Below, one piece after another: positions 1-18,023 of a DNA stretch of 25,688 nt; the stretch's first letter is position 1, and every line of letters starts with the position of its first letter. The notes under the pieces were generated by a model that did not search any database, had not been told where the DNA came from, and saw only the letters and a program-made list of their open reading frames with translations. Both the position numbers and the translations under genes were made by a program. This DNA comes from a virus (Duplodnaviria > Heunggongvirae > Uroviricota > Caudoviricetes): the IMG/VR virus record IMGVR_UViG_2627853701_000015. One strand, 5' to 3'.

Positions 1-900
1 ATGAAAATCGATCTTAATCTTTTACCCATTTTTATCGCGGTAGCAGAAGAGAGTAATTTTAGTAAAGCCGCCGCACGGCTGGGCGTTACCCGTTCAGCGG
101 TCAGTCAGGGAATAAGACGCCTTGAAGATGCATTCGGGACAATGCTTGTAATGCGGACCACGCGCTCAGTTAATTTGACAGAAGCGGGAGAACGGCTGCA
201 TAAATCGCTGTCATTACCTTTATCCGGTATTGAGGCAGCGTTCGAAGAGATGGTTTCTGACCATGTGCCACGCGGACTTCTCAGAATCGCGGTGACGTCA
301 ATAGCTGAAGAATTTCTTTCAGGTCCGCTAATCGCTTCGTTTGCAGCAGCCAATCCAGCCGTTACGCTTGATATTGTTGTCACGGATGAGGAATTCGATA
401 TCGTGGCCGCAGGTTACGATGCTGGCGTAAGGCTCGGAGAGGTCATTGAAAAAGACATGATTGCTGTGCCCCTTACCGGCAGGCAGCGTGAAATGGTCGT
501 TGCCTCTCCCTCCTATCTCGCAGCCAACAGCACACCTGTTCATCCGCGTGAACTTGTGAATCATAAGTGTATCGGCTGGCGTCAGTCCCCGGAGGTTGCG
601 CCTTATCGCTGGCCATTTGAAGAAAACGGGAGAGCTTTCGACCTTGCGATTGAACCGCAGATTACGACTAATGATCTGCGTCTGATGTTGAGGCTGGCTC
701 TTGCCGGCGGAGGAATAACAATTGCCACTCAGGAAACTTTCAGGCCGTATATTGAAAGCGGTAAGCTTGTATCTCTGCTTGATGACTTTCTTCCACAATT
801 TCCGGGCTTCTATCTGTATTTCCCACAGCGTCGCAATATTGCACCAAAGCTCCGCGCTCTGATTGACCACGTTAAGGAATGGCGGCAGCAATTGGCTTAA
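1..900 (+). CDS. LysR-family transcriptional regulator
   Basis: 299-aa ORF with N-terminal helix-turn-helix 'LLPIFIAVAEESNFSKAAARLGVTRSAVSQGIRRLE' typical of LysR-type regulators, then a co-inducer-binding-sized domain; ~50% GC; lies outside the proposed satellite boundary. Confidence 0.85.
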   Translation: MKIDLNLLPIFIAVAEESNFSKAAARLGVTRSAVSQGIRRLEDAFGTMLVMRTTRSVNLTEAGERLHKSLSLPLSGIEAAFEEMVSDHVPRGLLRIAVTSIAEEFLSGPLIASFAAANPAVTLDIVVTDEEFDIVAAGYDAGVRLGEVIEKDMIAVPLTGRQREMVVASPSYLAANSTPVHPRELVNHKCIGWRQSPEVAPYRWPFEENGRAFDLAIEPQITTNDLRLMLRLALAGGGITIATQETFRPYIESGKLVSLLDDFLPQFPGFYLYFPQRRNIAPKLRALIDHVKEWRQQLA

Positions 901-1026
901 ATGTCTGCACCTGCATTGCCTGATGTCAGAACAGTATTTTGATTAATTGCCAGGGTTACAATGGCACAAATGCGGCACAGGAGGAAACGTGGTGTATTTA
1001 AATATGGGGTAACTACTTGATTTAAA

Positions 1027-1045
1027 TGGTGCGATAATAGGAACC
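1027..1045. repeat. degenerate direct copy of the tRNA-Thr 3' end; candidate distal att repeat of the P4-type element
   Basis: TGGTGCGATAATAGGAAC here versus TGGTGCCGATAATAGGAG at 13820-13837, same orientation, one indel and one mismatch by eye. Confidence 0.3.
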
Positions 1046-1575
1046 AATAATCGCCACCAACACAATGATTTTAATACATAAATTAAAATAGAAGATTTAA
1101 ACTACACACACCCCTATACACATTGGTGAAGGCGTTCGCTTTCCGCGCATTCTCAAGGCAGAAAAAACTTTTTTTGGGGGATAACTGTTCATACTACTCA
1201 TTGTGTTTTTTTTCATTAATATTCAAAAAGATATGAAATTAACGATTGATAAGAAGTGAACACTTTACTGTTCACCTTGACTGATTAATAAGTGCATAAA
1301 AACCTAATTTTTGAGCACGGAAGGTATTTGTTCCTTACCCCATTTTTTCTCTTTAGTCCAGTACAACAAAAAATGCGCCCAACAGAAAACTGTTTTGAAT
1401 TTAAATGCAATCGCTTTGTAGTGATTGTAACGTAAGTTGATTTGATGGGTGCGATTTTGTTTAGCGATAATGGTATGTTGTAAAAATCATTTCGTTGCAA
1501 TAAAATTGCATCGCTACATTTTATAGACAATATCAATTAAATTTTAATACTCATTATTAATTTTGAGGCTAACAA

Positions 1576-2532
1576 GTGACTAGTTATTCAAACTTTTCCA
1601 ATCAAATAAAAGAAACCATCAATAATAAATTCGATCATGAAATTCATGATTGGGACATTATAAAAAACTCAATCACAACTTTAATAAATAAAAATATCCA
1701 TGGTGCAGGTAGAAATATCGTTGATTTTATAGATTTAGGTAACTGGGATTTTATTTCAAACTTTTCCTTTGATGACTCTACAAGAAGACTTGAATTAGAG
1801 TGGCACCCCAATGATAAATTCCATATATATATTGAGTCCGTTGTGTTTGTCGAGTTTAATGACACTATATATGCTTTCTTAAAGGGATACTATCACAATC
1901 AGTTATCTCTAAATAGAATATATAATACAAAATGCTCTTCATGTTCATTTGAAAACTCAGGTTCTTATATGGTAGACGTTTATAGAACGGTTAAAAGAGT
2001 AAATGAGACAATCCAGACCCCAAATATAAATTGCTATACTACATGTATTTTAACAAGGCCCGCAAATGGTCATGTTACATCTACAGGCTTCTCACGAAAC
2101 CTCATGGATGCGATAAATATTTCATTAGCAGAGCACAAAATAGCCTCTTTACATAATGAAGTCATGAGTATTGAGGAATATGATCGTGATTCTTTACAAG
2201 AGAAAGGAAATACTGCCAGGAGATATTTAGAATATATTCTCATGCTTGTTAATATTCGTATAATGCATTTAAACAACGTTCAATACCAAGAGCAAATGCT
2301 AGGTAGTTTAGTTTCTGTTATTGAGGCTCTGGACTATGAACCATTAATGAAAAATGATGTTGAAATTACAAAGGACATCCTTAATGCTTGCAGCCACCAC
2401 GGGGGGGTTAGAATTGAAAAGAAAGATGTAATTTTTTCTTTGGAAGTTATTGAAAACTTAATTAAAGCCATAAAGAAAACCGACATAAATAAATTACAAC
2501 TCGATGGGATGTTTAAATCAATTCAAAAATAA
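1576..2532 (+). CDS. hypothetical protein, AT-rich accessory gene of unknown function
   Basis: 318-aa ORF with GTG start preceded by GAGG 7 nt upstream; ~30% GC against ~50% flanks; convergent with the alpha gene; no motif I can assign. Confidence 0.6.
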   Translation: MTSYSNFSNQIKETINNKFDHEIHDWDIIKNSITTLINKNIHGAGRNIVDFIDLGNWDFISNFSFDDSTRRLELEWHPNDKFHIYIESVVFVEFNDTIYAFLKGYYHNQLSLNRIYNTKCSSCSFENSGSYMVDVYRTVKRVNETIQTPNINCYTTCILTRPANGHVTSTGFSRNLMDAINISLAEHKIASLHNEVMSIEEYDRDSLQEKGNTARRYLEYILMLVNIRIMHLNNVQYQEQMLGSLVSVIEALDYEPLMKNDVEITKDILNACSHHGGVRIEKKDVIFSLEVIENLIKAIKKTDINKLQLDGMFKSIQK

Positions 2533-2635
2533 ACATCATCTAACAATGAATTAGATGCATTTTCCGCTGACGCCTTAGCATATAACTTTTAAATTTTATC
2601 GATATATATTTTGAGATAATTTCCTGTAGCGGATT

Positions 2636-2658
2636 TAAGACCGGCACAGCCGGTCTTA
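2636..2658. terminator. 10-bp-stem hairpin between convergent genes, possible bidirectional terminator
   Basis: TAAGACCGGC-ACA-GCCGGTCTTA perfect inverted repeat between the stop at 2532 and the alpha stop at 2665; no clear U-tract on either side. Confidence 0.35.
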
Positions 2659-2664
2659 GGTCAG

Positions 2665-4998
2665 TTATTTCGCTGCAAACTCATCGCATTTTGGCAACCA
2701 GTCAGCATTGCTTTCCTCTCTTAGGGCCAGATTAGTCTGCATTCCTTGATTGGTCCGTCGTTTCTCATACTGCAGCCCATATTCCTTGAGCATTAACGGT
2801 AGCCCCTTGCCAAACATGGTCAGACTGAGCGTATTTTTATAGCCGTTAGCCTCCATGTAGACCAGATAGGCATGGTAGAGGTAAGTTCGAGGCTGACGTG
2901 GAACAATATTAGCGTTCCCCATAAACATGCCCGTGGTGTCAGGTAGGACCTCAAGGTAGCCGCAAAAATCAAAAGCTGAATCAGCATCACGTTTGATGGT
3001 GAGCGCTTCATCGGAGTTCTGCTGTGACTGAAGCAATGTCCTGGCACTCATTGGGTCGCTGAAACGCTGCATAAGCTGGCGAACAATCACCGCTAGCTCA
3101 CTGGCAATTTTCTCTTTGAGCTGGGTATCGCGTTCCTCCGGGGCTATCTGGTCGGGGAAATGCAGGATCACCCTTCGGCGTGAAACTCCACCACTACGAT
3201 CAGTGAAGCGCATCGGATTATTGTTCACAGCCAGGATGACCGCCGGGATGTGGGTTGAATAGGCGTTCTGATATTTGGGATCAACGGATACCGCATCGCC
3301 GCCAGTGATGGCTTTTAGTCCGGCCCCGTCACCGCTCCACTTTTCCTGGTCGGGAAGTCGAATCAGTGAAAAACCTATTAACGCAGCTCGTTCTCTTGGC
3401 GACTCAAGCATTTCAATGGTTGCCGAGGTCGCGTTATCTTCACCCGCCAGCATGGTTGCTATTTCAGCAAGAATACTCTTTCCACTTCCGCCAGGGCCAG
3501 TGACCTCCAGAAACAGCTGCCAGTCATAACGGTTAGCCAGCACCATAAACAATGCAGCCAGAATAATGTCCCGTTTTTCAGGATTAAAACCTGCGGCACG
3601 ATCCAGCCAGCGCCAGAATGCCGGGGCATGGGTTTCCAGTGACTCACCGTCAACGGGCTGCGTGTAATCCACCTCGCACAGCGTACGTAACCAGTGCTTC
3701 TTATCGTGCGGGCTGAACAATCCTGTCCGGGTATCGAGCACACCGTTGCGAAATCCGATAAGTTGCCGCGCCGGATTCTGCTGTTGCGGAACGATCAGTT
3801 TGAGGGTTTCCACGAGAGACGCAATTTTCGCGGATGAAAAAGGTGCGTCGAGGCGCTGAAACAGCGCAGCGACATCACGGGCAAAATCGGCGTAATAGAT
3901 AACTTTCCAGGCCCCCGCCTCATAGCGTGAAAGGAGCTGCCCGTTCGGGTCTACTGCCAGTGAATTTTTATAGTGATCCACTACCCTCTGCGCTTTTTCG
4001 CTGACGCTCAGCGCGGTAAATTCAGCTTCGCTCATTGTGTCGAAGGGGCTGGCAACAGCTGGTTTTATTACTTCATGAATTGCATGCCGGGTGGCTTCTT
4101 CGCCGTTTTGCGTGAATGCATCGTTCCAGTCACCAAACACAGGCGGGAGCGCCATTGTGCAATTGCAGGCCCCGGTAACAGCTGCGCCCCTTGTTTGCCC
4201 CGCACCGTTGAGATCGCGGTCAGCAGCAATAATTATCTGGTGCGTTGGGTACTCACTGCAGGCAATGCTCGCCAGGGAAAGGAAATTGACGGACGAAAAG
4301 GCCACCATGACAGCATCGCCAGTCAGATAGTTGATAGTAAGTGCGGTGGCATATCCTTCCGCTATCCAGAGCCGTTTGGCTGCTTTGGCAGTACCTTCAA
4401 CCAGGTAAAAGGCATTCTTAACCTGACCGCCTTTAAGGAAGCATTTGCCCCCATTAGCGTTGATTAACTGCAGATTTACCAGCTCTCCATCTGCATACAA
4501 TGGAACGACAAGATCTCCCGCGCGAAATGCCACACCACCGACTTTATGCATAGCGGTTAATTCCCGGCAAGGCAGTGCAGGAAACCCTTTACTCGTCAGA
4601 TAGGCATTGCCAGTGGTCTGGCGGGACTTATCAAACAAACGGGCAGCCAGCACTGCTGCAGCTTTTCTCCCGTCCTCTTTTTCAGGAGAACCAGATTCAA
4701 GCATTCCCTGAGATACTGGCAGCAGGTTTCCGATAATGCCGTTTATTCTGTCTGCCGCTTCACTAATGCCTACATCCAGTACTTTACTTACAAGCGCCAG
4801 GCCATCACCTGCCCCGCACTGGTTACAGAACCACGTTCCCCGCCCTTCCTGGTCATCAAATCGAAAGCGGTCTTTCCCGGCACAGACCGGGCAGGGCTGG
4901 TGCCGATTTTTCAGTACATTTACGCCCAGCGCAGGTAAAATTCTTGACCAGTGACCCCGAGCTGCTTTCTCAGCCTGGCTAACTTTCATTCCTGACAT
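2665..4998 (-). CDS. P4 alpha-type DNA primase/helicase
   Basis: Zinc-binding 'CPVCAGKDRFRFDD...CNQCG' N-terminus, primase-sized central region, Walker A 'GPGGSGKS' helicase C-terminal half. Start placed at the internal ATG (MSGMKVSQ...) with AAGGAGG 8 nt upstream; the ORF track extends to 5055. Confidence 0.9.
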   Translation of the reverse strand: MSGMKVSQAEKAARGHWSRILPALGVNVLKNRHQPCPVCAGKDRFRFDDQEGRGTWFCNQCGAGDGLALVSKVLDVGISEAADRINGIIGNLLPVSQGMLESGSPEKEDGRKAAAVLAARLFDKSRQTTGNAYLTSKGFPALPCRELTAMHKVGGVAFRAGDLVVPLYADGELVNLQLINANGGKCFLKGGQVKNAFYLVEGTAKAAKRLWIAEGYATALTINYLTGDAVMVAFSSVNFLSLASIACSEYPTHQIIIAADRDLNGAGQTRGAAVTGACNCTMALPPVFGDWNDAFTQNGEEATRHAIHEVIKPAVASPFDTMSEAEFTALSVSEKAQRVVDHYKNSLAVDPNGQLLSRYEAGAWKVIYYADFARDVAALFQRLDAPFSSAKIASLVETLKLIVPQQQNPARQLIGFRNGVLDTRTGLFSPHDKKHWLRTLCEVDYTQPVDGESLETHAPAFWRWLDRAAGFNPEKRDIILAALFMVLANRYDWQLFLEVTGPGGSGKSILAEIATMLAGEDNATSATIEMLESPRERAALIGFSLIRLPDQEKWSGDGAGLKAITGGDAVSVDPKYQNAYSTHIPAVILAVNNNPMRFTDRSGGVSRRRVILHFPDQIAPEERDTQLKEKIASELAVIVRQLMQRFSDPMSARTLLQSQQNSDEALTIKRDADSAFDFCGYLEVLPDTTGMFMGNANIVPRQPRTYLYHAYLVYMEANGYKNTLSLTMFGKGLPLMLKEYGLQYEKRRTNQGMQTNLALREESNADWLPKCDEFAAK

Positions 4999-5011
4999 TG
5001 TGCGGCCCTCC

Positions 5012-5335
5012 TTAGTGCAGCGCTGGTTTGTTGAGGTGACGGGAACAAAGTTCATCCATGACCGTCATTCCGAGCAGTGAGAGAACCGGACAGGCTTTAA
5101 GCGGCCCCGACTCCATCAGATCCGAAAGCAACGCGCAGGCAATTTCCAGCCCTCTTTGCTGCCCATGCTGGCGCAGATAGAACCCTTCCAGCTCGCGGGC
5201 TATGGCATCTTCAAGTTCAGCGAGCGTCAGGCCGGAATAACGTTCCTGATGATTGCTTAGAGCCAGCCAGGCACAGGCAACGGCACGGCGATACAGAGCG
5301 GCACGAAGTGCCAGAAGAGATTCACAGCATATCAT
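5012..5335 (-). CDS. hypothetical protein in the alpA-alpha operon
   Basis: 107-aa ORF; its ATG overlaps the upstream ORF stop (ATGA at 5333-5337); same strand as alpA and alpha. Confidence 0.45.
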
Positions 5336-5556
5336 CAGGCCACCTCCGCATTCATCAGGTCGTCATGGCAGCGTTGCACCACTCCATCCAGTTGCTCTGT
5401 CATCAGATAAATGAGGGAAACCAGTTGTTCGCATTGGGCACCTGCTGGCTTTTCATAACAGTCCTGCAGGGCTGCCATGCCAGTTACATACTCACCCACA
5501 TTGCGTAAATGTTTCAGCCTTACAACATCGTCGTAGGAAATCTCAAACTGGTTCAT
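5335..5556 (-). CDS. hypothetical protein in the alpA-alpha operon
   Basis: 73-aa ORF with ATGA start/stop overlaps at both ends (5553-5556 and 5333-5337). Confidence 0.45.
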
Positions 5557-6110
5557 AGCGTCACCTCCCCGGCAGGCAGCCGTGCAGAAAGGGAGAGTAC
5601 ATAATCTCGGACTAGCAAACGGCGCGCGGAACGCTCATCGCAGGAGACAGTGCGAAGCATACAGATGCGGGGGTGAGTGTCAGCACGGCGGATTGCGGCA
5701 AACACAAAGACATATTGCGGGTGTGACGGGGTGAGGATTGTAGCCATGATGGCAGCCTCCAATAAGTAGCGGTTATTGCTACCACCGGAAACGCCAATTT
5801 CACTGGTGGCAGCCCGAACGGGGTTGGCGTAACCGGCCTTATTGGAAACCGGCCAGCCCGAAGGCTGCCCCGCCCGGACTACCATTATCTCGATAGAACC
5901 ATGGTGTAAGCATAAACACCACAGCCCTGAAAATGGTTGTGCCTGAGCTACGACGTAAAAAAAGACGCAAGGGGCGTCAATTGTCGCCAATAAGTTATAC
6001 GGAACGCCAATTCCGGCTGCCGATTTTGCGACAGCGGAAAAACTATACCTGGAAATGACGACAGTAAGCAAGCCAGAATAAAGGTATTTAATGTATGCAG
6101 GTATCATCAT
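5553..6110 (-). CDS. hypothetical protein, uncertain
   Basis: 185-aa ORF whose start overlaps the alpA stop (ATGA at 6107-6110) and whose stop overlaps the next start; odd composition, so it could be a shorter gene or partly non-coding. Confidence 0.35.
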
Positions 6111-6367
6111 GCATCACATCCCCGCCCACGGGCGCTGATGCGGTCCGCCATCCATGCGCTGACCTCAGACTGTGCCCAGGCGACATTTTTACCGCCAAGC
6201 GGGATCTGCTTCGGAAACGCATCGCGGCTGATCAGGTCGTAAACGGTCGAACGGGACAACCCGCATAAGTGCATCACCTCAGGCAGGCGTAAAAATCGCT
6301 CATGATGGTTCGATACAGGAAATAATGGCGCAGCAGGAGCTGGCGCAGACACAGAAATATTACGCAT
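6107..6367 (-). CDS. alpA: AlpA-family phage transcriptional regulator
   Basis: 86-aa protein with '[53 protein letters not shown]', the AlpA/prophage CP4-57 regulator helix-turn-helix pattern. Confidence 0.85.
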
Positions 6368-7212
6368 TTATCTACCCTCTTTAATTTCCACAACAGTCCG
6401 GATGAATTTATCCGGGTTCAGGTAGTTCCTTATTATGTGTATATAAACCACCTGCGCACGCATTTTTTATTTAGCGTCACATATTGATTTTATGGAATTT
6501 AAAGCCCGATTAAACCATATAAAATGACATAATAAATACCATGCCTGCGGACTATAAATACAGGAGCATTAATAGGAACTACCATTCACCCAGGGTTTAC
6601 TATCCTATGGGTCATTGCACCTGATAGTGCTAACCCCACCGCCAATACAGCAAGGCAGTACAACTTCTACACGAGGCCTTGCATTGCAGGCCCCAATTTC
6701 CGGGCATATTTTTGAATCGCATCCAACTTATAAACATTGGGCCTGCATAAAAACCTTGATATTAAATAACATCACCTTAAATCGTAAAATATATCCGAAT
6801 GAATCCATAAAGAACCGGACAGATCTAGTTTTATAAAAATCAGTATGAAATGCAACACCATGGCCAGAGGCGAAAATGTTATTCCCCGGCAAAAACATGC
6901 AGTCTATTTATGTGCCTGTTGAATACTCCTGAATAAGGGTGAATAGTGGTGAGGAGCAAAAAACAAATAGCTACGAGGAATAAAAAAACCACCCATTATG
7001 AAAAAATACCATAAATAATTTTATTCCCATGTGAACAGTTATGAACAGTCGATGAATACTGCCATGCCAACCCTTCACCTTATAACCTTCTGTATTACCT
7101 ATTTTTTTTACCTAAGTGAATAGTAGTGAATAGTTAAGGTAAGTCTGAAACAGCCTTAGTTAAACGAGGCCTTTTCTGGCTAGCCAAAAGAGGTCCGGGG
7201 CGGTTCAGTCTT

Positions 7213-7230
7213 TGTCTTGTCGCTCGCACA
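7213..7230 (+). promoter_or_regulatory. TGT-N12-ACA dyad, candidate Ogr/Delta activator site of the late promoter
   Basis: TGTcttgtcgctcgcACA lies ~70-90 nt upstream of the ATG at 7301; P2/P4 late promoters carry this dyad near -55. Confidence 0.5.
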
Positions 7231-7300
7231 ATGGCGTTCAATGGCAGCTTTGTATGCATCACAGCACAATTGACACCACGACAAACCACTAGGTGCTGAC

Positions 7301-8053
7301 ATGACAATCCCAGAACAGAACAATAACCCGATCGTTGAAATTTCTATCCCTGTTTCGACGCAACAGGCGCTTGAGAAAGTGAATGCCACCAAATCTGCAT
7401 GGCTTGAAGCACGTCGTCAGCAAAAAGCGGCAGCGGATAATATTGCGACAATCCGCCAGCGCCGCGCTGAAATGGAAGCCACGACGAACGCCCTGAATGA
7501 GGAGTGGCGCACGCTATTTCGTGAAAGTCAGGGCGTAGTCTCAAAGGAAATGAAAAAACTGCGCACGGAAATTGCGCTGGGACGAGAAACGCTTGAGGAT
7601 TTTGATGAGCTGCTGGCGGCTCAGGAAAGCGAAAATGCACTTTTGCCGCAGGAGGCTGCGGAATTAGCCGGAAAGTATATCCACGCGCACGACACCCTTG
7701 TGGGTATTCGCGCAAAACAAATCTGGGAAGATTTTATGCAGTCGCATGGAAAAGCACTAATCCAGACACTAAGCCTGCTCAAATCAACAATGGGCAGGGA
7801 AGCCAGCGCAGTTGTCGGTGTGGTGCATTCAGTTAATGACCCGGACACACTGCTGAAAGATTTTATTCATAAACATATCACCAGACCGGCTCTGACTAAC
7901 GATGCGATGCCCGAACAGGACCCCGTGTTTAAACTGGCGGGAGTTGCCCCGGATTATGCGGCCCGTCTGGATTTCAGTAATAAACTCTCTCCAGCAGCTA
8001 TGCATAAAATGAAGGTTCGTCAGGAACGTGCTGAGAAGGAGAAAGCAGTATGA
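7301..8053 (+). CDS. P4 Sid-like / Psu-family late protein
   Basis: 250-aa ORF with AGGTG 5 nt before the ATG; first gene of a coupled operon ahead of the psu-like and delta-like genes; size matches Sid; assignment by position and size only. Confidence 0.5.
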   Translation: MTIPEQNNNPIVEISIPVSTQQALEKVNATKSAWLEARRQQKAAADNIATIRQRRAEMEATTNALNEEWRTLFRESQGVVSKEMKKLRTEIALGRETLEDFDELLAAQESENALLPQEAAELAGKYIHAHDTLVGIRAKQIWEDFMQSHGKALIQTLSLLKSTMGREASAVVGVVHSVNDPDTLLKDFIHKHITRPALTNDAMPEQDPVFKLAGVAPDYAARLDFSNKLSPAAMHKMKVRQERAEKEKAV

Positions 8054-8601
8054 TGGCCCGAGTCACTCCAGACCAAGCGCTTATCAGTTTTAGAAATGCC
8101 CGTATTCTGTGGGCTGGACATAGTGAGAGCCGAAAAGCCGTTGAACAACAGATAGAATCACTCCTCACTGCCATGGAAAAACCAGCAGATTATGCTCGAC
8201 AGCTCGAATTACAGCGGGAACATCTGGATGTGCTGAAATGGCAAATTAACTGTGCTGCGCGCGAATGCATTTACTCGCAGCATCAACTGATGGAGGCCTG
8301 CACAGAAGACGCTCTCAGCAATTTTATGCAGGCGAATGGAGCAGCCCTGACATCTGCACTGGCTCCGTTCCTGAAGGGGCGCGGAGGGGTTGACGTTGCG
8401 TCCCGTATATTACGCAATGCTCTGGTTCGCCAGCTGGCAATAACACCGCCTGAAATTGCCGGGGATTATCGTATGATTCTGGATGAATCCGGTGTGATGC
8501 CTGACCCCATGATGGTTCGTGATTGCCAGAGCTCTTACACCCCTGCACAACAACTGCGCTTTCAGCAACGTCTGGATTACATTAACGGCATGCAGGAGTA
8601 A
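8050..8601 (+). CDS. psu: Psu-like polarity-suppression protein
   Basis: 183 aa; 'KWQINCAAR...FMQANGAALTSALAPFLKG...TPAQQLRF' resembles P4 Psu as I recall it; ATGA-coupled to the upstream gene. Confidence 0.6.
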   Translation: MMARVTPDQALISFRNARILWAGHSESRKAVEQQIESLLTAMEKPADYARQLELQREHLDVLKWQINCAARECIYSQHQLMEACTEDALSNFMQANGAALTSALAPFLKGRGGVDVASRILRNALVRQLAITPPEIAGDYRMILDESGVMPDPMMVRDCQSSYTPAQQLRFQQRLDYINGMQE

Positions 8602-8606
8602 TATTA

Positions 8607-8879
8607 ATGGCACTTAAATGTCCCGAATGCGGTACGACGGCACACGCCAGAACCTCCGCCTATGAAGCACCATCGGTTAAACGCTCATGGTATCAGTGCC
8701 AGAATCTTGAATGTTCCTACACATTTACCGCACTGGAAAGTGTGGATACGATAATCATGAAGCCCCGGCGCAATGAACAGGAATCAGAGAAAGCACAAAT
8801 GCCGGAAAAACAACAGCAAACTCTCAATCGCTATGGCTCCGCGTCAAAGCTGTCAAGCCGTCAGCAAATTCCTGTCTGA
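8607..8879 (+). CDS. Ogr/Delta-family zinc-finger late-gene activator
   Basis: 'CPECGTTAHARTSAYEAPSVKRSWYQCQNLECSYTF' is the C-x2-C...C-x4-C Ogr/Delta zinc-finger pattern; 90 aa, a single Ogr-like unit. Confidence 0.85.
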   Translation: MALKCPECGTTAHARTSAYEAPSVKRSWYQCQNLECSYTFTALESVDTIIMKPRRNEQESEKAQMPEKQQQTLNRYGSASKLSSRQQIPV

Positions 8880-8900
8880 TTAGCAAAAAAAGCCCACGTA

Positions 8901-8926
8901 ATCCCGGTCCAGTACTGGGATTTTTT
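8901..8926 (+). terminator. rho-independent terminator after the late operon
   Basis: Hairpin TCCCGG-loop-CTGGGA followed by TTTTTT, directly after the delta-like stop. Confidence 0.5.
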
Positions 8927-9232
8927 ACGCCTTTTCCCTGGCTGGCCTGAGAGCGCATGAGTGCATGTCTATAGCGCATGAAAACGCATGATTCTCATGC
9001 ACCATTTTTGACGCGAAAGCCCTTGTGTGGTGGCTTCTGAGACGATTTGCGGAATGCATGAAAACCAGTCTGTTAAGCGAAGCGAGCAGGCGTGGGGGGC
9101 TGCGCGCGCTAAGGGGTTAGATTATAAAATATCAAACGCCGGTGAGATCCATTATTGTGGAACCACCCGAAGGAAGTGTAGAGGCGAAAGTACCCAAAAT
9201 AATTTTGCAAATTATTTAGAAATGAACTGAGC

Positions 9233-9258
9233 GCTCGAAACGAAATATAATTTCGAGC
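9233..9258. repeat. inverted repeat at the 3' end of the hotspot operon
   Basis: GCTCGAAA-N10-TTTCGAGC between the hotspot operon end (9289) and the upstream module; no U-tract, so terminator function is uncertain. Confidence 0.3.
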
Positions 9259-9288
9259 ACCCCAATTAGCAGTTATATTTTTAATGTA

Positions 9289-9855
9289 TTAAACAGGATA
9301 AAAACCAGAGCTTCCATTCTTATTTAAGTTATGGATTTTATTTGCATCATTAATTTTTATTTGGAACGTCGGACCTTTATTCTCAAGAATTACAATCTGG
9401 AAATTATAGTCCCTTTTGATTAATGCGTGATAAAATGAATCACTGAGACTGACGCTATTAACATCCGATAGAGAACCCCCTCTATCTTTATCAAAGTGCG
9501 TCACTAATGGACTATCAAGCACAACAAATCCAATGAATGGATTCCCTTTTCTTGATAAAAATTCCGCAAAGCAAATGGTAAATATAGCATGCATTACTGC
9601 ACGGGTACCTTTACCAAACATTCCTCGGCGTTTCCCATTGATATTAAAGTCATATGTATCTTCGTCAAATCGCACTTTGTTATCTTTAGAATTTTCAAAA
9701 TTTATATCATTCAAAAAGTCTTGCATCGCTATTTCTATATCATACAAATCAGCTACTGTTAAGGAGTCAAAGTCCTCGGCGGAGTATTTAAGTTCGTCAA
9801 CATCATCTTCTTTATCTTGTAATGAAGATAGAATGCTATGTTTTGTGTGATCCAT
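9289..9855 (-). CDS. ABC/SMC-like ATPase, C-terminal head segment
   Basis: 188 aa; signature-like 'FGKGTRAV', Walker-B-like 'FIGFVVLDSP', D-loop-like 'THFD'; start ATG overlaps the upstream stop (TAATG at 9853-9857); ~28% GC. Confidence 0.55.
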   Translation of the reverse strand: MDHTKHSILSSLQDKEDDVDELKYSAEDFDSLTVADLYDIEIAMQDFLNDINFENSKDNKVRFDEDTYDFNINGKRRGMFGKGTRAVMHAIFTICFAEFLSRKGNPFIGFVVLDSPLVTHFDKDRGGSLSDVNSVSLSDSFYHALIKRDYNFQIVILENKGPTFQIKINDANKIHNLNKNGSSGFYPV

Positions 9856-10445
9856 TAAAAGATTGTCTTTATATTCATAAAGTGATTCAAGAGATGAATG
9901 TATTGTTTTATATTTTTATCTTCTAACGTCTTAAAATCACTTTTTTCTGATTGATAAATTTCATTAACATCATTTTTTCTTAACATAATTAATTCATGTT
10001 CGCGAACATTAGATCCGATTGATTCAATTAATCCTTTCAGCTGGCTTTTGATTTTCAATTTTTCTGCATTACACGACAAAAAACAATCATCATATGATAT
10101 TTCATTTTCTTTTTTTTGCGGTGTATTACAGAACTCACAATAAATATCTGCAAAATTATTTAAATAGAAATTCGCCTGTGATACAACATCTATTCTTTGT
10201 AGATCTATAAAGTATTGGTCTTTAAGAAGACTAAATCTTTCAATGAGTAATGATAAGTATTTTTCCCTGTCACTGATTGAATATAATTCATCACTTAACT
10301 CTTTTAATAATTGCTTCTTATCATCAAGTGCATCAACAATACCTTTCAATATATCTTTCGATGATTCAATATCTTGCTCTACTTTCTCAAGTTCTCTTGA
10401 AACAATGACTTGATCATATTCAGGATAAATTAATTGCGCTTTCAA
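9855..10445 (-). CDS. coiled-coil segment with Cys4 cluster; probably the central part of the same ATPase
   Basis: Charged heptad-like repeats; C-x2-C ... C-x3-C cluster (CEFC ... CFLSC) mid-segment; no in-frame ATG or RBS, and the frame continues upstream to a single TAA at 10476-10478 that ends the Walker A ORF. Confidence 0.45.
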   Translation of the reverse strand: MKAQLIYPEYDQVIVSRELEKVEQDIESSKDILKGIVDALDDKKQLLKELSDELYSISDREKYLSLLIERFSLLKDQYFIDLQRIDVVSQANFYLNNFADIYCEFCNTPQKKENEISYDDCFLSCNAEKLKIKSQLKGLIESIGSNVREHELIMLRKNDVNEIYQSEKSDFKTLEDKNIKQYIHLLNHFMNIKTIF

Positions 10446-10475
10446 TTCCTCATAAATATTTGCAATTTGATTTTT

Positions 10476-11108
10476 TTAAAAATATCTTGCTTTTTTATTT
10501 GGTTTTTCTGCTAAGGAGTTAGTATCATCTCTCTGAGTTAAAAGGAATTTAAATTCAGACTTTCTTTTTGTCTCCTCGCTAGGAATATCAGAAAGAATTA
10601 ACGACTTCTCAGTTAACACTCTTAATTCATCAATACAAAAAAATTCAAAAACATTATTAAGATTAAATTTATGAAGAGTATTACTTAAGTTTGTTCTTAC
10701 TTTAGCCTCTTTGAAATTCAACCTACCATAAAAGTATGATGAAAAACTCTTTTTAGACGAAGCACTTTTGGAAAAAACCATCAACAGATTAGCTTCACTA
10801 ACATTTTCAATACTCGAATCATATAATCTGTAATGGGCGCTATCCTGAAGAGACCTCTCAATTGTCATTACCCTACCTTGAAAATTAAATTCCAGATAGG
10901 CTAAATCATAACCTTGAGCATGATCGATATCTTTATTTTTTAGTTTTTCACTCCCTAATAAATATCGAATCAAATAATATATGTATGTTTTTCCAGAGTC
11001 AGAACCACCATATAAAATAGTCAATTTAGAACCAAATTCAATTATAGCATCTAATTTATTGAATCCGGTTACCTTTATTTTTCTGAACGTAAAAAAATTG
11101 TCATTCAT
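10476..11108 (-). CDS. ABC/SMC-like ATPase, N-terminal head segment (Walker A)
   Basis: 'FRKIKVTGFNKLDAIIEFGSKLTILYGGSDSGKTYIYYLIRYLLG' is the N-terminal strand plus P-loop pattern of RecF/SMC/Rad50-type ATPases; ATG at 11108 overlaps the upstream stop (ATGAATGA). Confidence 0.6.
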   Translation of the reverse strand: MNDNFFTFRKIKVTGFNKLDAIIEFGSKLTILYGGSDSGKTYIYYLIRYLLGSEKLKNKDIDHAQGYDLAYLEFNFQGRVMTIERSLQDSAHYRLYDSSIENVSEANLLMVFSKSASSKKSFSSYFYGRLNFKEAKVRTNLSNTLHKFNLNNVFEFFCIDELRVLTEKSLILSDIPSEETKRKSEFKFLLTQRDDTNSLAEKPNKKARYF

Positions 11109-11559
11109 AATTAAATTCCATATCATATTTGCCAATTTTATTTTTTATAATTGATTGCAACTGCTCATCAGGAATATCACTATATAACTTAACCACCAAA
11201 TTTATATTATGCTCCATCTGCGCAACATATTCATTATGTAGAGAATTTGTAAATGCATATGTTTTTTCAGAAGCTTTATATACAAAACCACGATGTGTAT
11301 AAATTTTTGAGGCTAGTTCATAGCCTTGCAACAAAGCCAATGATTCTAAAACAATCTCTCGTTTTAGGGCTAACTGAGCATCTCTACGGGGTATTGGAGG
11401 ATGAAGACTAATCTCTTCAGGTAAAAAATCCTTAAGATTTACTAAAATAAAATCAAAACAAATAAGCCGTTCAAGGCTTAATGAAGAAGGATAAATAGCG
11501 ACGAGCACTTTCGCCATTCGACATGCCACTTCTAAACTTGAATTATAAATTCTAACCAT
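11101..11559 (-). CDS. hypothetical small protein, middle gene of the hotspot operon
   Basis: 152 aa from the ATG at 11559, which overlaps the upstream stop (TAATG) and has GGTGAG just upstream; the ORF track extends it to a TTG at 11574. Confidence 0.5.
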   Translation of the reverse strand: MVRIYNSSLEVACRMAKVLVAIYPSSLSLERLICFDFILVNLKDFLPEEISLHPPIPRRDAQLALKREIVLESLALLQGYELASKIYTHRGFVYKASEKTYAFTNSLHNEYVAQMEHNINLVVKLYSDIPDEQLQSIIKNKIGKYDMEFNYE

Positions 11560-12176
11560 TATCTCACCGTCCAAATTACTTCACCATCATTAACCAAATG
11601 ATGGCATATTCCTTTTTTATCATTTGCTTCACATATTTTTGATAGTACTGAATGTGCAATTGGTGTCAGAACAGCCTGCTTCAAGACTGCATTACACCTA
11701 ATAAATGCATAATTATGGTCTTCATAAAAGACGGGTTCAATTGAAGATGAAATGTAACATTTCAATGCTTTGAATACATCATCTTTAAATACTTCGCGGA
11801 CAAAAACCTCAAGCGAAGATGCAAAATAAAAATCATTTCTACTATTATTAAAGTGTCGTCTGTATGGATCATCAAGCTCTAAGAAAGAACTATAAGTTTT
11901 ATTTCCATGCTCTGAATAGGCTTGAAGCAGTGCATTAACATATACAGACTCTTTTTTTGAATTGTATGTTGGAATTTCATTTGGAGGGATTCTCACGACA
12001 TACAGCTCGTTAAAGTACTTAAAATAAAGGTGTGTATTTGCAATATCATTTAAAATCAATGATAAGGGTAGAGAGTAAAAAATACTAAAATCAAAATCCT
12101 CAATATATTTTTTTATTTCATCATCTAATGGAATATCAATCTTTTTAGTTATTTTTTTGAAATTGCTGAATCCCAT
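11559..12176 (-). CDS. hypothetical protein; possibly the C-terminal part of the nuclease gene
   Basis: 205-aa ORF with no RBS, overlapping the upstream ORF by 28 nt across an A7 tract (12152-12158); a 1-nt change there would fuse the two frames into ~335 aa. Confidence 0.45.
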   Translation of the reverse strand: MGFSNFKKITKKIDIPLDDEIKKYIEDFDFSIFYSLPLSLILNDIANTHLYFKYFNELYVVRIPPNEIPTYNSKKESVYVNALLQAYSEHGNKTYSSFLELDDPYRRHFNNSRNDFYFASSLEVFVREVFKDDVFKALKCYISSSIEPVFYEDHNYAFIRCNAVLKQAVLTPIAHSVLSKICEANDKKGICHHLVNDGEVIWTVR

Positions 12177-12565
12177 GAATCAAGGACTGCTTTTTTAAGC
12201 TCGTTTTTATTTTTCAATAAATTAGAAAATGTAGTAGATAAATCATAGGGTGCCACAAAAAAGTACTTCTGAGGGATGGGATAATCACCATTCAGAGTAA
12301 AATAGATAAGTTTTCCAAACTCAACTACAACATCAGAGAACCCTAAACTTTTTTTGTACAGTTTGCATTGATAATTATCCCAAGAATAACCTTCTACGTT
12401 AGGATCCGATTTATATCCAACAACGTCTCTACCTTTATCTCCAGCTCCTCCCAAACGTTCGCTCCACGGGTAATCATCTGATTTACAGACAATAAGCCAA
12501 TCATGGACAAATACCTCCCATTGTTCATCATCCCATGTCAATATTTCCGAAAGTGGTTGAGACAC
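12149..12565 (-). CDS. Mrr-like PD-(D/E)xK restriction-endonuclease-fold domain protein
   Basis: 'WEVFVHDWL...GGAGDKGRDVVGY...YQCKLYKK' matches the Mrr catalytic-domain pattern (G-x-G-D-x-G-x-D then Q/E-x-K); GTG start with AAGGAG 7 nt upstream, 3 nt after the int stop. Confidence 0.55.
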   Translation of the reverse strand: MSQPLSEILTWDDEQWEVFVHDWLIVCKSDDYPWSERLGGAGDKGRDVVGYKSDPNVEGYSWDNYQCKLYKKSLGFSDVVVEFGKLIYFTLNGDYPIPQKYFFVAPYDLSTTFSNLLKNKNELKKAVLDSWDSAISKK

Positions 12566-12568
12566 AAA

Positions 12569-13657
12569 TTAACTCCTTTTTAGTCTTTCAAATATCAAAT
12601 TACTGTACCAGTCCATCATAGACTTCCTTCCACTAAAATATTGAGCATGGTTATAAGTCCCCCTAATAGAATTTTTATCTACATGAGCCAACTGGATTTC
12701 AATCCAAGCACTCTCAAAACCTTGCTCATGCAGGATTGTAGAAAGGGTATGACGAAAACCATGTCCAGTGACTTTTCCTCCATACCCAATACGCTTAATG
12801 GCTTGATTTATACTCGCTTCGCTCATTGGCCTATTCGGATCGTTCCGCCCTGGAAAAACATAACGATAGTTCCCTGTCATGATCTTGAGTTCATTGAGTA
12901 AATCTACCGCTTGAGATGATAAGGGCACAAGATGTGGCCTACGCATTTTCATCCTTTCAGCAGGAATTTCCCAAATAGCGTTATCCAGATCAAATTCTTG
13001 CCATAATGCCGCGCGTAATTCGATGGTTCTCACACCCGTAATCATCAGTAATTTCGTGGCTATCTGGACAAGCTTACTCCCGGAGTAACCCTCTAAGGCA
13101 CGTAGAAAATCAGGTATCTCATCAGCTTTTAGGAATGGGAAATGATTGGATTGGTGTACTTCGAGAGCGCTGGAGAGATCAGCCGCAGGATTGTACTCCG
13201 CCCTACCCGTTGCAATTGCGTAGCGAAACACCTCTCCCACAGGCCTTGTTCCGACATAAGGAAAAATGTCGTTCTTAAACGCTTCCATGATGTCTGATGC
13301 ATATCCCGCCGACCATTTAGCAGATTTAAGTTGATGCCACTCTCTGGCTATCTTTTCGAAGGCGTTCTCTGACTCTGTTTGCATAGCTAGCTTTTGCTCT
13401 TTTCGAACCTCACTAGGGTTCTTTCCTTCTGCCACAAGTTTTCGAGCTTCATCACGACGGGAACGAGCATCGGCAAGGGTGATCGTTGGGTAAACACCAA
13501 GCGAGATCATTTTGGGTTTGCCGGCATAGCGATAGCGGAACCGCCAACTCTTGCTTCCATTAGGTTCTATAAGTAATGACAACCCTAGCCCATCTCCAAA
13601 TGTATAGGCTTTAGCTTCAGGCTTAGCGCGGCGAATCTGCATATCGTTTAAAGGCAT
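12569..13657 (-). CDS. int: P4-type tyrosine integrase
   Basis: N-terminus 'AKPEAKAYTFGDGLGLSLLIEPNGSKSWRFRY', catalytic region 'GHGFRHTLST...AHVDKNSIRGTYNHAQY' (R..H-x-x-R...Y); directly downstream of a tRNA 3' end. Start set at the internal ATG (MPLND...); the ORF track extends to 13708. Confidence 0.9.
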   Translation of the reverse strand: MPLNDMQIRRAKPEAKAYTFGDGLGLSLLIEPNGSKSWRFRYRYAGKPKMISLGVYPTITLADARSRRDEARKLVAEGKNPSEVRKEQKLAMQTESENAFEKIAREWHQLKSAKWSAGYASDIMEAFKNDIFPYVGTRPVGEVFRYAIATGRAEYNPAADLSSALEVHQSNHFPFLKADEIPDFLRALEGYSGSKLVQIATKLLMITGVRTIELRAALWQEFDLDNAIWEIPAERMKMRRPHLVPLSSQAVDLLNELKIMTGNYRYVFPGRNDPNRPMSEASINQAIKRIGYGGKVTGHGFRHTLSTILHEQGFESAWIEIQLAHVDKNSIRGTYNHAQYFSGRKSMMDWYSNLIFERLKRS

Positions 13658-13709
13658 GTGTATAGGAATCCAGACCGAACAGGAACATATACACAATCCT
13701 ATACACATT

Positions 13710-13819
13710 CAGTACCGGATTCTACTGGATGGTTACGGACTACTATGGACTTAAAAGAATAAAAAATGTTATAAATCAGAGATTTTATGGACTAATACGG
13801 ACGTTTGAGGAAGTTGAGA
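13710..13819. repeat. att arm region with short direct repeats
   Basis: Repeated GGACTAC/TATGGACT/TACGGAC words between the int start and the tRNA core, as expected for integrase arm-type sites. Confidence 0.35.
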
Positions 13820-13865
13820 TGGTGCCGATAATAGGAGTCGAACCTACGACCTTCGCATTACGAAT
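13820..13865 (-). other. 3' 46 nt of a tRNA-Thr(CGU) gene: att core, not an intact tRNA
   Basis: Reverse complement TTCGTAATGCGAAGGTCGTAGGTTCGACTCCTATTATCGGCACCA has half the anticodon stem, CGU anticodon loop, T-arm GGTTCGACTCC, acceptor 3' strand and CCA; sequence 5' of it (>13865) is not tRNA. Confidence 0.7.
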
Positions 13866-14212
13866 TATAAGAATCCGCTTCTAATTCAAAGCATTACCCC
13901 ATCAACACTGCGCTCACACGTCCCACCACATCAAAACATGTAAAGCCTTGCAAGCCATTGCGAGGCCTTATGTGTCTCAGTTTTGTCCCACCTTGTATTA
14001 CGACTTGCATAGCCAATGAAGATAAACGTGACGACAAACGGCGCAGCAGTCTTCTTTTCTTTCACGACTTCTCCAGCATGCATACCTTTCTGCCATGACT
14101 GAAGTGAATGCCTGTTATGAGCAAGGATTGGCCCAGATGAATCGCCCTGGACTGTTGCGATCGTGAAGCCATAGACTGGGCCGCAAGCACGGGAGGTTAC
14201 GATAAAGCGACA

Positions 14213-14578
14213 GTGCAGGATGTCATGTTAGGAGCGATAGAAAAACGCTTTGGCGATAAAGTACCGGAACAGTCCATCCAGTGGCTGACAGATAACGGTT
14301 CAGCGTATAGAGCGCATGAAACACGGCAGTTCGCCAGAGAGTTGAATCTGGAGCCCTGCACAACGGCAATCAGCAGTCCTCAGAGTAATGGAATTGCAGA
14401 AAGGTTCGTGAAAACGATGAAGGAAGACTACATCGCGTTCATGCCGAAACCGAATGTAAGAACGGCATTGCATAATCTTGCAGTGGCGATCGAACATTAC
14501 AATGAAAACCATCCGCACAGTGCGTTGGGTTATCGCTCTCCGCGAGAATATCGACGTCAGCGGGTAACGTTAACTTAA
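14213..14578 (+). pseudogene. transposase/integrase-core C-terminal fragment (IS remnant)
   Basis: '[10 protein letters not shown]...[11 protein letters not shown]...[12 protein letters not shown]' is the C-terminal DDE-transposase pattern; upstream frames are broken, so only a ~120-aa remnant is readable. Confidence 0.55.
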
Positions 14579-14619
14579 GATACCCCCCCTGTCTGGAAAT
14601 AAGGGGGCAAGAACAATGA

Positions 14620-15363
14620 TCAGATTCCCTGGTGAGTAAGAATTTTACTTTCTGAACTCCTCTGAGAGTATTGACTTGGAGAAACACCAAAATAACGTCT
14701 AAATACATAAGTAAAGTATGAGACACTGGCATAACCACAGACCTTAGCTACTTTACTAATAGGATAACAACGAGTGCTGAGTAAATATTCAGCCATTTGC
14801 ATCCTCTCATCAAGTATGATCTTACTGAATGATACCCCCTCTTCTTTCAATTTCCTCTTTAGTAAACTTTCGCTGAGATATAATCTTGATGATATATCCT
14901 TAAGACGCCATGGTGCAGATAAATCCGTATGAATAATCGTTTTAACTTTAGCCCCTGTGCTTTTCAAACATCCAAACAGAAATACTCCAAATTGTTTTTC
15001 AGAAGAAAATGCAGAGAGACATGTAAAAGCAATAGACTCATCAAAAATTTCTATGTATTCAGCACAGTGATTAGCCCAACTAATTAATCCTTTAATTAAA
15101 CTGAAGTCAGCAAAGTTTATTTTTAAATAAGATGGATATTCCCTACAATCAGAAATATCCCTTAAGTTATTAGCTTTCAAATAGCGACTAATAAACTCAG
15201 CGCCAAAATCCGCCACTATCACTCTTTCAGGATATGTCAGGAAAAAATCTCTAGAGCTAGAGTCGACAAGTACAGATGAACCTCTCTCCAGAAACACACT
15301 CTCTTTTCCGAAATAAACATCAAAGGACTCCAAAATCAATATAACTGAACATGTAGTTGCCAT
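14620..15363 (-). CDS. AraC-family transcriptional regulator
   Basis: 247 aa with C-terminal AraC-type HTH 'ISKVAKVCGYASVSYFTYVFRRYFGVSPSQY'; AT-rich (~33% GC). Confidence 0.75.
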   Translation of the reverse strand: MATTCSVILILESFDVYFGKESVFLERGSSVLVDSSSRDFFLTYPERVIVADFGAEFISRYLKANNLRDISDCREYPSYLKINFADFSLIKGLISWANHCAEYIEIFDESIAFTCLSAFSSEKQFGVFLFGCLKSTGAKVKTIIHTDLSAPWRLKDISSRLYLSESLLKRKLKEEGVSFSKIILDERMQMAEYLLSTRCYPISKVAKVCGYASVSYFTYVFRRYFGVSPSQYSQRSSESKILTHQGI

Positions 15364-15945
15364 ATCATCCCCCCAATTTAACTGAAACCAGGATGAAGTA
15401 TATGTATATAAAGTTCACTTTGCCAAACTTCAGTATAAAAAACCACTAAAAATAGGGTGTGATAAAAAATACCGTAACAATAAAGCAAAGGATTATAAAT
15501 TCCGTTACAGTTACAAATGATACTCAAGAAACAATTCCTTAGGAAAAACTTATTTACAGCCAATAAGTAAGACACTTATATGATATCAAGTTTTCATAAA
15601 ACATAACTAGGCTAAATAGCTGCGCCTAATACCGCTACACTTTTGCCAGCCCATGTTTGCCTCCGGGTATTGACCCCTTCTCTACGCAACTTCAGTTCCC
15701 ACCACCAACTTTGCGGCAGCTTTGTAGGATCAATGTCTAAAAGAATAATGGTGACCGATAAGAAAACGACTGAATAACTGCAGATTTTCGCTCAAAACCT
15801 TCCTGTCAGATCCATAGCGAATCAAGTGCTGAATGTCACAGTATCGAACAGAAAACAGTGACGATCTAACCCTTCAAGAATATTCTACGATTGTTCTGTT
15901 TAGGAAAAGCAAGACGGGAAGTCGGGAGATAAGTCATTGATAAAG

Positions 15946-16007
15946 TGGCGGAGAGAGGGGGATTTGAACCCCCGGTAGAGTTGCCCCTACTCCGGTTTTC
16001 GAGACCG
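15946..16007 (-). other. 3' 62 nt of a tRNA-Ser gene: att-type remnant, not an intact tRNA
   Basis: Reverse complement CGGTCTCGAAAACCGGAGTAGGGGCAACTCTACCGGGGGTTCAAATCCCCCTCTCTCCGCCA matches the anticodon-to-CCA part of an E. coli tRNA-Ser as I recall it; the 5' part is absent. Confidence 0.65.
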
Positions 16008-16090
16008 ACCCGATCATCAAACGAAACATAAAATTAGCTCACATTATGAGGAAAGGTATCTTTTTGCGCTATGTAAATTCAAAGGGTTAG

Positions 16091-16960
<870 letters not shown>

Positions 16961-17017
16961 ATCTTCAAGTGGTAAGCATAAACCGCAGCACGATCTTGCA
17001 TACGACGTGCTACGGTT

Positions 17018-18012: not shown

Positions 18013-18023
18013 TTTTATTCAGG

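Follow-up and report, generated by a model that had tools for sequence, protein, structure and literature searches.

Satellite P4 and its relatives share a core set of genes, given by de Sousa & Rocha as int, psu, delta, sid, alpA, epsilon/ash and alpha, and the definition of the P4-like family tolerates one or two absent components (PMC8628076). The late gene order of P4 is found in 77% of complete P4-like elements, and the commonest exception, a swap of psu and delta, accounts for another 20% (PMC8628076). One member of the family, Sp2, has been described as a P4-like prophage of Escherichia coli Sakai (PMC2669165). Here, we analyzed a 25,688-nucleotide stretch of DNA from the IMG/VR virus record IMGVR_UViG_2627853701_000015 (hereafter, the window), in which an initial annotation made from the sequence alone had placed a P4-type satellite prophage with alpA, a rearranged late operon and a tRNA-Thr attachment site. 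We are confident in identifying the element, which spans window ~1027-13865, with prophage Sp2 of E. coli O157:H7, a P4-family satellite that is most likely an immobile relic.

The first 14 kb of the window are 100% identical to E. coli O157:H7 chromosomes. In the Sakai record (NC_002695.2), positions 310628-323514 are labelled 'prophage Sp2, P4-like phage' and correspond to window ~1043-13836. This is an already catalogued element, annotated since the publication of the Sakai genome, and its EDL933 counterpart is CP-933I. The whole element is found at no less than 99% identity across about 308 genomes of O157:H7/O55:H7 type. Past Sp2, the Sakai chromosome continues with prophage Sp1 and then with thrW and proA; the RefSeq annotation of another strain has the same layout, with a complete tRNA-Thr just past the right end of the window.

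The left boundary, a degenerate repeat near 1027 in the initial annotation, proved to be real on four grounds. Homology of the LysR flank to more than 3800 other E. coli genomes stops at window ~1042, where a tRNA-Thr is annotated in many of them; the Sakai annotation of Sp2 ends at this repeat; a sibling satellite in Pantoea alhagi terminates in an identical 16-nt variant core; and putative arm-type repeats lie just inside both ends, the TGTGTATAGG motif occurring within positions 1-14000 only at 1113(-), 13657(+) and 13698(-). Carriage of the LysR gene by the element, which would have moved this boundary, was checked as well: the gene is ordinary chromosome, outside the element, and lies beside thrW or another island in over 3800 genomes of E. 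coli.

On the right, the reported tRNA-Thr 3' core (13820-13865, minus strand) reproduces the last 46 nt of thrW without a mismatch. Its 17 nt at 13820-13836 correspond to the P4-type core and the entire 46 nt to the core of the neighboring prophage Sp1. Only the 3' 46 of the 76 nt of thrW are present, without a complete cloverleaf and anticodon, and ARAGORN found no complete tRNA in the window. A whole tRNA gene inside the window was therefore rejected, the full thrW lying outside, beside proA. Window 13819-13900 matches the attP region of SfII, SfV, SfIV and related thrW-integrating phages at 96-100%, which identifies 13820-13865, where the Sakai Sp1/Sp2 border also falls, as the junction between the two prophages and not as a functional tRNA gene. 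Thus integration at the thrW site stands, but the tRNA piece beside int is a junction shared with Sp1 and not the gene itself. The element is the distal, second member of a tandem array at thrW, with the functional tRNA behind the degraded Sp1.

Within these boundaries, all items listed in the initial annotation were found in place (Table 1), and its P4 ground plan was borne out: alpha, Vis/AlpA, Cnr, the CI RNA region, the ori repeats and the sid promoter have their match in P4, and a cos-like site aligns with P4 cos, though with a different sequence. Satellite P4 (NC_001609) has the same order as a prophage: att, crr, alpha, orf106, cI RNA region, vis, ori, late operon, cos, hotspot, int, att. 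Identity to P4 is 73% over 771 aa for Alpha, 71% for orf106 (Cnr), 68% for the cI region and 63% for Vis, of which the reported AlpA is simply the homologue; it is 37% for Int, 31% for Psu and 23% for Sid, and the element's delta is 41% identical to the first half of P4 delta. Every open reading frame (ORF) in 1027-13865 could be accounted for, and no capsid, tail, terminase or lysis gene is among them, in agreement with the claim that structural and terminase genes are absent.

The two satellites differ in cargo and attachment site. The hotspot of P4 holds gop-beta-cII and that of the element a Lamassu system, and P4 attaches at leuX instead of thrW. P4 also has epsilon and orf151, whereas the element has neither: no counterpart of epsilon, orf151, gop or beta was found in any reading frame of the window, tblastn of P4 epsilon against all window frames gave nothing better than E 0.5, and no scanned ORF matches the epsilon family PF25738. 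The 73-aa ORF in the position of P4 epsilon/orf151 belongs to phrog_10110 and not to the epsilon family phrog_10016/PF25738, and has no similarity to P4 epsilon. Near the left end, repeats found by a motif scan at 1186-1275 are a possible equivalent of crr, given their position between attP and alpha as in P4. Residues 167-256 of P4 cII gave a marginal tblastn match to window 1222-1470 on the minus strand (31% over 93 aa, E 0.02); the match falls between the cargo gene and the left att and could stem from decayed older cargo or from chance.

Table 1. Features of the Sp2 element and of the adjoining Sp1 prophage, in window coordinates.
Feature	Position	Strand	Evidence or remarks
Distal att core, left boundary	1027..1043	.	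TGGTGC-GATAATAGGA; thrW 3' end without one base; 16-nt imperfect core
Arm-type integrase-binding repeat (putative), inside left end	1103..1125	-	TGTGTATAGG; also conserved at both ends of the Pantoea sibling
Possible crr equivalent	1186..1275	.	Motif scan; alpha-type repeats including an inverted GTGAACA pair at 1256-1275
Cargo gene, 318 aa, intact	1576..2532	+	Low GC (0.31); minor primase-att hotspot; HEPN-like C-terminal domain
alpha primase-helicase, 777 aa from RefSeq start	2665..4998	-	Pfam Zn_Ribbon_Prim, Toprim_3, D5_N, DUF5906, Pox_D5
Three abutting ORFs	5012-6110	-
P4 orf106 (Cnr) homologue, DUF5375	5012..5335	-	Pfam DUF5375 E 1.7e-49
73-aa ORF in position of P4 epsilon/orf151	5335..5556	-	phrog_10110 E 3e-42
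Icd-like ORF, 64 aa, downstream of CI RNA	5553..5747	-	68% aa identity to P4 equivalent, many synonymous differences
CI RNA, P4-type immunity factor	5802..5889	-	Rfam RF01695 (C4 family), 84 bits
Immunity-transcript leader with terminator	5958..6035	-	Rfam RF01394 (isrK), 71.9 bits
alpA, P4 Vis (orf88) homologue, excisionase and regulator	6107..6367	-	Pfam Phage_AlpA E 1.2e-19
ori, six GTGAAYA-type repeats	6939..7132	+	Motif cluster; aligns with P4 ori type-I repeats, P4 9311-9418
Late sid promoter, two TGT-N12-ACA boxes 38 bp apart	7213..7268	+	Positional conservation
sid homologue (capsid-size determination)	7301..8053	+	phrog_6165 E 5e-96, full length; weak Pfam Psu match
psu homologue	8050..8601	+	Pfam Psu E 4.8e-42; phrog_6366 E 1.4e-76
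delta, single Ogr-like zinc-finger unit, 90 aa	8607..8879	+	Pfam Ogr_Delta E 1e-16; phrog_603
cos-like site	9082..9110	+	GCGAGCAGGCGTGGGGGGCTGCGCGCGC; aligns with P4 cos region; hotspot starts right after
Hotspot	9289-12565	-
lmuB pseudogene (ABC/SMC-like ATPase), three pieces	9292..11108	-	PADLOC LmuB model 3-199, 231-412, 428-608 of 610
lmuC (ABC-3C middle component 2), intact	11101..11559	-	Pfam MC2 E 6e-30; PADLOC LmuC E 2.5e-36
lmuA pseudogene (effector and CTD6), two pieces	11562..12565	-	PADLOC LmuA model 10-140, 141-333 of 336
int, P4-type tyrosine integrase, 31-aa in-frame central-domain deletion	12569..13657	-	Pfam Arm-DNA-bind_3, Phage_int_M (split), Phage_integrase
Arm-type integrase-binding repeats (putative), beside int	13657..13707	.	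TGTGTATAGG at 13657(+) and 13698(-); conserved in Pantoea
thrW 3' 46 nt	13820..13865	-	Exact match to E. coli thrW 3' end
Sp1: truncated IS3-family transposase	14213-14578
Sp1: AraC-family regulator	14620-15363
Sp1: GIY-YIG protein	16136-16960
Sp1: Pin invertase and invertible tail-fibre cassette	~17018-19853
Sp1: frameshifted O/P replication genes; cII/cro/cI
Sp1: PIN-domain gene	22629-23012
Sp1: frameshift pseudoknot of a complete IS629/IS1203	23319-23435		Rfam ALIL
Sp1: truncated integrase running off window end	24714-25688

The late genes sid, psu and delta abut at 7301-8879 and constitute one operon. Profile searches confirmed the homology on which the initial annotation had made its reading depend: the three products are Sid, Psu and Delta homologues (phrog_6165, phrog_6366 and phrog_603; Pfam Psu and Ogr_Delta) and fall in the same PHROG families as P4's own three proteins. 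Both departures from P4 that had been pointed out are also correct, the order being sid-psu-delta instead of sid-delta-psu, and delta being a single 90-aa unit instead of the 166-aa tandem protein of P4. Both are nevertheless ordinary, because the order is the published 20% variant, the delta-cos module (window 8880-~9115) recurs at about 90% identity in some 550 other genomes of E. coli, and a satellite of E. coli CRE1540 integrated at a tRNA-Leu has the same backbone, the same sid-psu-delta order and a 90-aa delta. The CRE1540 satellite differs from the element in its hotspot cargo (SIR2 and an ATPase), integrase and attachment site.

The sites flanking the late operon are conserved as well. 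The window, P4, an E. coli relative and the Pantoea sibling all have the two TGT-N12-ACA boxes at the same distances upstream of sid, about 50 and 88-90 nt. The number of such motifs over the whole window is not above chance, and the evidence lies in the conserved positions upstream of sid. We take the two boxes to correspond to the known two-site sid promoter responsive to Ogr/delta. On the other side of the operon, the P4 cos core aligns with that of the element but differs in sequence. Three E. coli relatives share the cos pattern and length of the element, and their homology to the window ends at ~9115, where their own cargo starts. From the alignment with the Pantoea sibling, the Sp2 cos might have been taken as defective by a 5-nt deletion; this was rejected since E. 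coli relatives with other cargo share the same cos length and pattern.

The immunity region gives the same pair of Rfam matches as P4, C4 at the CI RNA and isrK at the immunity-transcript leader. The CI RNA of P4 carries boxes at positions 44 and 59 whose complementary targets lie upstream and, at +92/+123, downstream. The CI RNA of the element has its boxes at the same two positions, with upstream targets at 5987-5994 and 6004-6010 and downstream targets at 5791-5797 and 5759-5766. The box sequences are unlike those of P4, yet each remains complementary to targets of its own, whose downstream offsets are those seen in P4. This compensatory change of boxes and targets relative to P4 speaks for an immunity system that works, with a specificity other than that of P4. 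A comparable arrangement is the C4 RNA-icd-ant region of phages P1 and P7, which belongs to the same Rfam family, follows the same two-box antisense logic and has a target over the ribosome-binding site of an Icd-like gene. P1 and P7 carry ant downstream, whereas the element has no ant and a P4-type replication operon in its place.

In the element, the ribosome-binding site of the 64-aa Icd-like ORF likewise overlaps one downstream CI RNA target box. This ORF, which RefSeq names Icd-like, is the end of a longer, 185-aa frame, in which the phrog_1743 match is confined to residues 121-183. Because the 185-aa frame overlaps both the CI RNA and the leader, we read it as mostly non-coding RNA translated through. 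The 'three coupled small ORFs' of the initial annotation do abut at 5012-6110, but the 185-aa member does not hold up as a gene, only its last 64 codons looking real. Pfam Phage_ASH (PF10554) matches ORFs that overlap the CI RNA and leader, both in the window (5714-6047) and in P4 (NC_001609, ~8330-8520), while P4 epsilon belongs to PF25738 and not to Phage_ASH. In survey papers on P4, Ash and epsilon are treated as the same thing, and 'ash' is counted among the core genes. If the marker in these surveys is Phage_ASH, it may score translated RNA, which might add to the many 'Ash pseudogenes' reported. The literature would thus need correcting: Pfam 'Ash', apparently a P4 core marker, matches an ORF overlapping the CI RNA and not epsilon.

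The six low-GC ORFs of the hotspot are fragments of a three-gene Lamassu system of the ABC three-component type, in the order LmuA-LmuC-LmuB. All three components were matched (PADLOC LmuA, LmuC and LmuB; Pfam CTD6, MC2, AAA_23 and DUF3732), but they are not one uninterrupted gene each, as lmuA has one frameshift and lmuB one stop and one frameshift. The lmuB stop is a TAA at 10476-10478 that reads TTA in O55:H7 DEC5E and O157:H7 LSU61, and the change of frame at 9888-9915 is present in all strains examined; the ATPase gene is marked as a pseudogene in Sakai. A position of this frame change at the TAATG overlap at 9855 was rejected, because intact homologues show that the frame of the third fragment extends upstream. 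Proteus mirabilis and Pantoea alhagi have such intact LmuB homologues, of 606 aa and with 86% and 74% identity, respectively. The frameshift in lmuA falls at 12137-12158, within seven consecutive A, and the addition of one A yields a protein of 335 aa that reads ...AISKKITKK... where the intact Pantoea LmuA reads ...AISKKISKK....

About 308 complete genomes carry the cassette, always at 99% identity or more. Homopolymers in lmuB vary by assembly: near 9945 there are A6 in the window, A5 in O55:H7 DEC5E and A7 in LSU61, and at 10110 there are T8 in the window and Sakai and T7 in 2009C-4687. These differences are either independent extra frameshifts or sequencing errors, and no conclusion rests on them. 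A search of solved-structure sequences with the repaired LmuA and an intact LmuB gave no match. While lmuB is in three pieces in the element and in two in O55:H7, Pantoea and Proteus carry the canonical intact Lamassu. The Proteus mirabilis system (locus L015, 7543-10821; LmuA 335, LmuC 152 and LmuB 606 aa; 86% identical) lies in an island beside the tmRNA gene, adjoining a split P4-type integrase. Being in a different island, this copy indicates that the Lamassu cassette moves between island types.

The cassette of the element is the 'Lamassu-var' of the Domainator study, whose passages on it (PMC11754643) describe the largest hotspot cluster, with 259 members, a flanking Psu 31% identical to P4 Psu, and carriers that are called not P4-like. 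In the same passages, the stretch CP038295:4116517-4120474 was cloned and only made plaques smaller, for T-even phages. We found that this stretch, from O55:H7 TB182A, has the same split lmuA and a two-piece lmuB. It follows that the construct tested was the fragmented form, and those passages make no mention of the fragmentation.

The sequence at the lmuA break, TC-A-AAA-AAA-TAA, looks like a -1 slippery heptamer with a stop codon behind it, and the next ORF is in the -1 frame. Were the ribosome to slip by -1 here, the product would be exactly the full-length LmuA of the ancestor. Engineered split Rad50 and SMC heads reassemble from separate polypeptides. We give little credence to the view that the Lamassu is weakened and not dead, through slippage in lmuA and reassembly of the LmuB head halves, and that, separately, the HEPN-like cargo gene described below is an undescribed single-gene defence.

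Compared to strain 2009C-4687, the integrase gene lacks 93 bp at 13231/13232. The int of Sakai is full length (1182 bp) and the Pantoea integrase includes the 31 residues; Sakai Sp2 and the window copy are the same element, with hotspots 100% identical, and the window copy is without the 93 bp. In TW14359, an IS629/IS1203 copy with a CTT duplication sits exactly at the start of the window's deletion, and deletions adjacent to IS629 during enhancer-dependent excision have been documented in O157 (PMC9943667). A 40-nt probe across the junction had no match in 5426 complete genomes, which indicates that the deletion allele is private to the source strain; a 60-nt probe had been uninformative, each half matching alone.

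Among the relatives of the element is the Pantoea alhagi sibling (CP019706; L016). It occupies the same thrW site next to proA, with the same 16-nt distal core and the same arm repeats, and its genes follow in the same order: int, LmuA, LmuC, LmuB, delta, psu, sid, alpA, a small ORF, the 'Ash' ORF, another small ORF, DUF5375 and alpha. Unlike the element, the sibling has an intact Lamassu (LmuA 335 aa, LmuB 606 aa), a whole integrase (393 aa) and a complete thrW beside int with no tandem partner; it also lacks the HEPN-like cargo beside alpha, and its cos core is about 5 nt longer.

Between alpha and the left att site, the element carries a cargo gene whose product has a C-terminal domain with a HEPN-like four-helix fold. 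This minor P4 hotspot, between primase and att site, holds 7% of P4 defence systems (PMC13586616). The ORF itself had no Pfam, PHROG or PADLOC match, and its family compared to Pfam at E up to 1 gave noise only, with no HEPN family. Members are conserved in Enterobacterales and Aeromonas at 44-80% identity, and are also found at the edge of a lambdoid prophage and as isolated one-gene islets. The invariant residues of the family include R215, R216, N270, C272, S273, H274, G276 and G277, with H275 and R279 near-invariant; the canonical R-x4-6-H motif is not among them. Elsewhere the gene often stands with a second unannotated gene, of 351 aa upstream in Pantoea and 375 aa downstream in Proteus (L007/L008, Pantoea vagans, 6919-8942; L009-L011, Proteus, 8001-10591). 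The copy in the window stands alone; the family might normally work as a pair.

The right half of the window (13866-25688) is Sp1, a degraded lambdoid prophage whose recognizable genes are given in the last rows of Table 1.

Taken as a P4-type satellite, the element would have entered the 3' end of thrW by site-specific recombination at the 16-17-nt core; it is now cut off from the working gene by Sp1, which uses the 46-nt core in the same tRNA. From P4 biology, the CI RNA would silence the element by pairing with the two boxes of the leader and again downstream. Ogr-type activators of a P2-type helper would fire the sid promoter, upon which Delta would activate the helper's late genes, Sid would shrink the helper capsid, and Psu would act on capsid and Rho. 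Alpha would replicate the element from ori, Int and Vis/AlpA would excise it, and the helper terminase would package it at cos. These activities, like the immobility in the source strain, are predictions; what the DNA itself displays is identity, boundaries, homologies, gene lesions and RNA complementarity.

We read the element as an immobile relic because its integrase is damaged, epsilon is missing, its Lamassu has decayed, and published observations on Sakai were negative. More specifically, in Sakai, where the integrase is whole, neither circularisation nor replication nor packaging of Sp2 was detected, whether mitomycin C was present or not, and Sp13, the only P2-like prophage of Sakai, is reported to be defective (PMC2669165). 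Without epsilon, the element would have no means to wake a resident helper. It is thus probably immobile, though its satellite core is intact on paper, and several points weigh against its being a relic. No damage is apparent in alpha, sid, psu, delta, alpA, the CI RNA, ori, the sid promoter or the cos-like site, and the element might respond to an incoming helper or be acted on by another P4-type integrase in the cell. That the 31-aa deletion inactivates the integrase is something we infer; helper dependence and cutting of cos by the terminase of a P2-type helper are assumed from homology, and no phage in the phage collection was found to share the cos core. Finally, the weak plaque-size effect of the cloned O55:H7 Lamassu in the passages of PMC11754643 means that 'dead' may be too strong a word for this system. 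A fully functional satellite, which in the presence of a P2-type helper would excise, replicate, be packaged in small capsids and transfer, is on these grounds conceivable, all core genes being open and of the lengths seen in relatives, immunity RNA and targets being complementary, and ori, sid promoter and cos-like site being conserved. We consider it improbable, however, given an integrase short of 31 central-domain residues, the lack of epsilon, the inactivity of Sakai Sp2 despite a whole integrase, the reported defect of Sp13 (PMC2669165), and a position in the tandem array that leaves the element with no complete tRNA junction of its own.

Somewhat less unlikely, but still doubtful, is a domesticated island kept for the benefit of the host through its HEPN-like cargo gene, a possible anti-phage or abortive-infection factor acting as a single gene, and perhaps also through a weakened Lamassu or through Psu and AlpA as regulators, in which case transfer would be irrelevant. 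In its favor, the cargo gene is undamaged, its family is conserved and mobile and also occupies prophage edges and one-gene islets, the fold of its product is HEPN-like, and it sits in a published minor defence hotspot (PMC13586616). The element is moreover fixed at 99% identity or above in the roughly 308 O157:H7/O55:H7-type genomes, and even the fragmented Lamassu gave a weak phenotype (PMC11754643, passages cited above). On the other hand, the cargo has no PADLOC defence model, Pfam HEPN family or invariant R-x4-6-H, and fixation in a young clonal lineage requires no selection. That the element is a satellite of some other tailed phage and not of P4 type, as the same passages state for the hotspots of this Lamassu variant, can hardly be right: the low identities of Psu (the 31% also given there) and Sid to P4 would fit, but Alpha, Vis, Cnr and the immunity region are 63-73% identical to P4, the CI RNA, leader, ori repeats and sid promoter are held in common with it, Sid, Psu and delta fall in its PHROG families, and Sakai annotates the prophage as P4-like. 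We therefore retain the reading of Sp2 as a P4-family satellite that has most likely become immobile.

Since the gene order is a published common variant and the element is known, neither opens a new question. The carrier of 'Lamassu-var' is a genuine P4-family satellite, which corrects its description in the passages of PMC11754643, and the commonest 'P4-hotspot system' in E. coli genome sets, the 259-member cluster described there, is a broken canonical Lamassu; this pseudogenisation bears on the weak phenotype published. In a 2026 survey, less than 1% of pseudogenes in P4-like elements match defence genes (PMC13586616), and the fragmented Lamassu is an exception to that rarity. A defence screen could include the HEPN-like cargo gene at little cost. 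If the Lamassu is only weakened, this would explain the small-plaque effect of the O55:H7 system and would suggest that a low-dose defence was kept in a prophage-crowded lineage.

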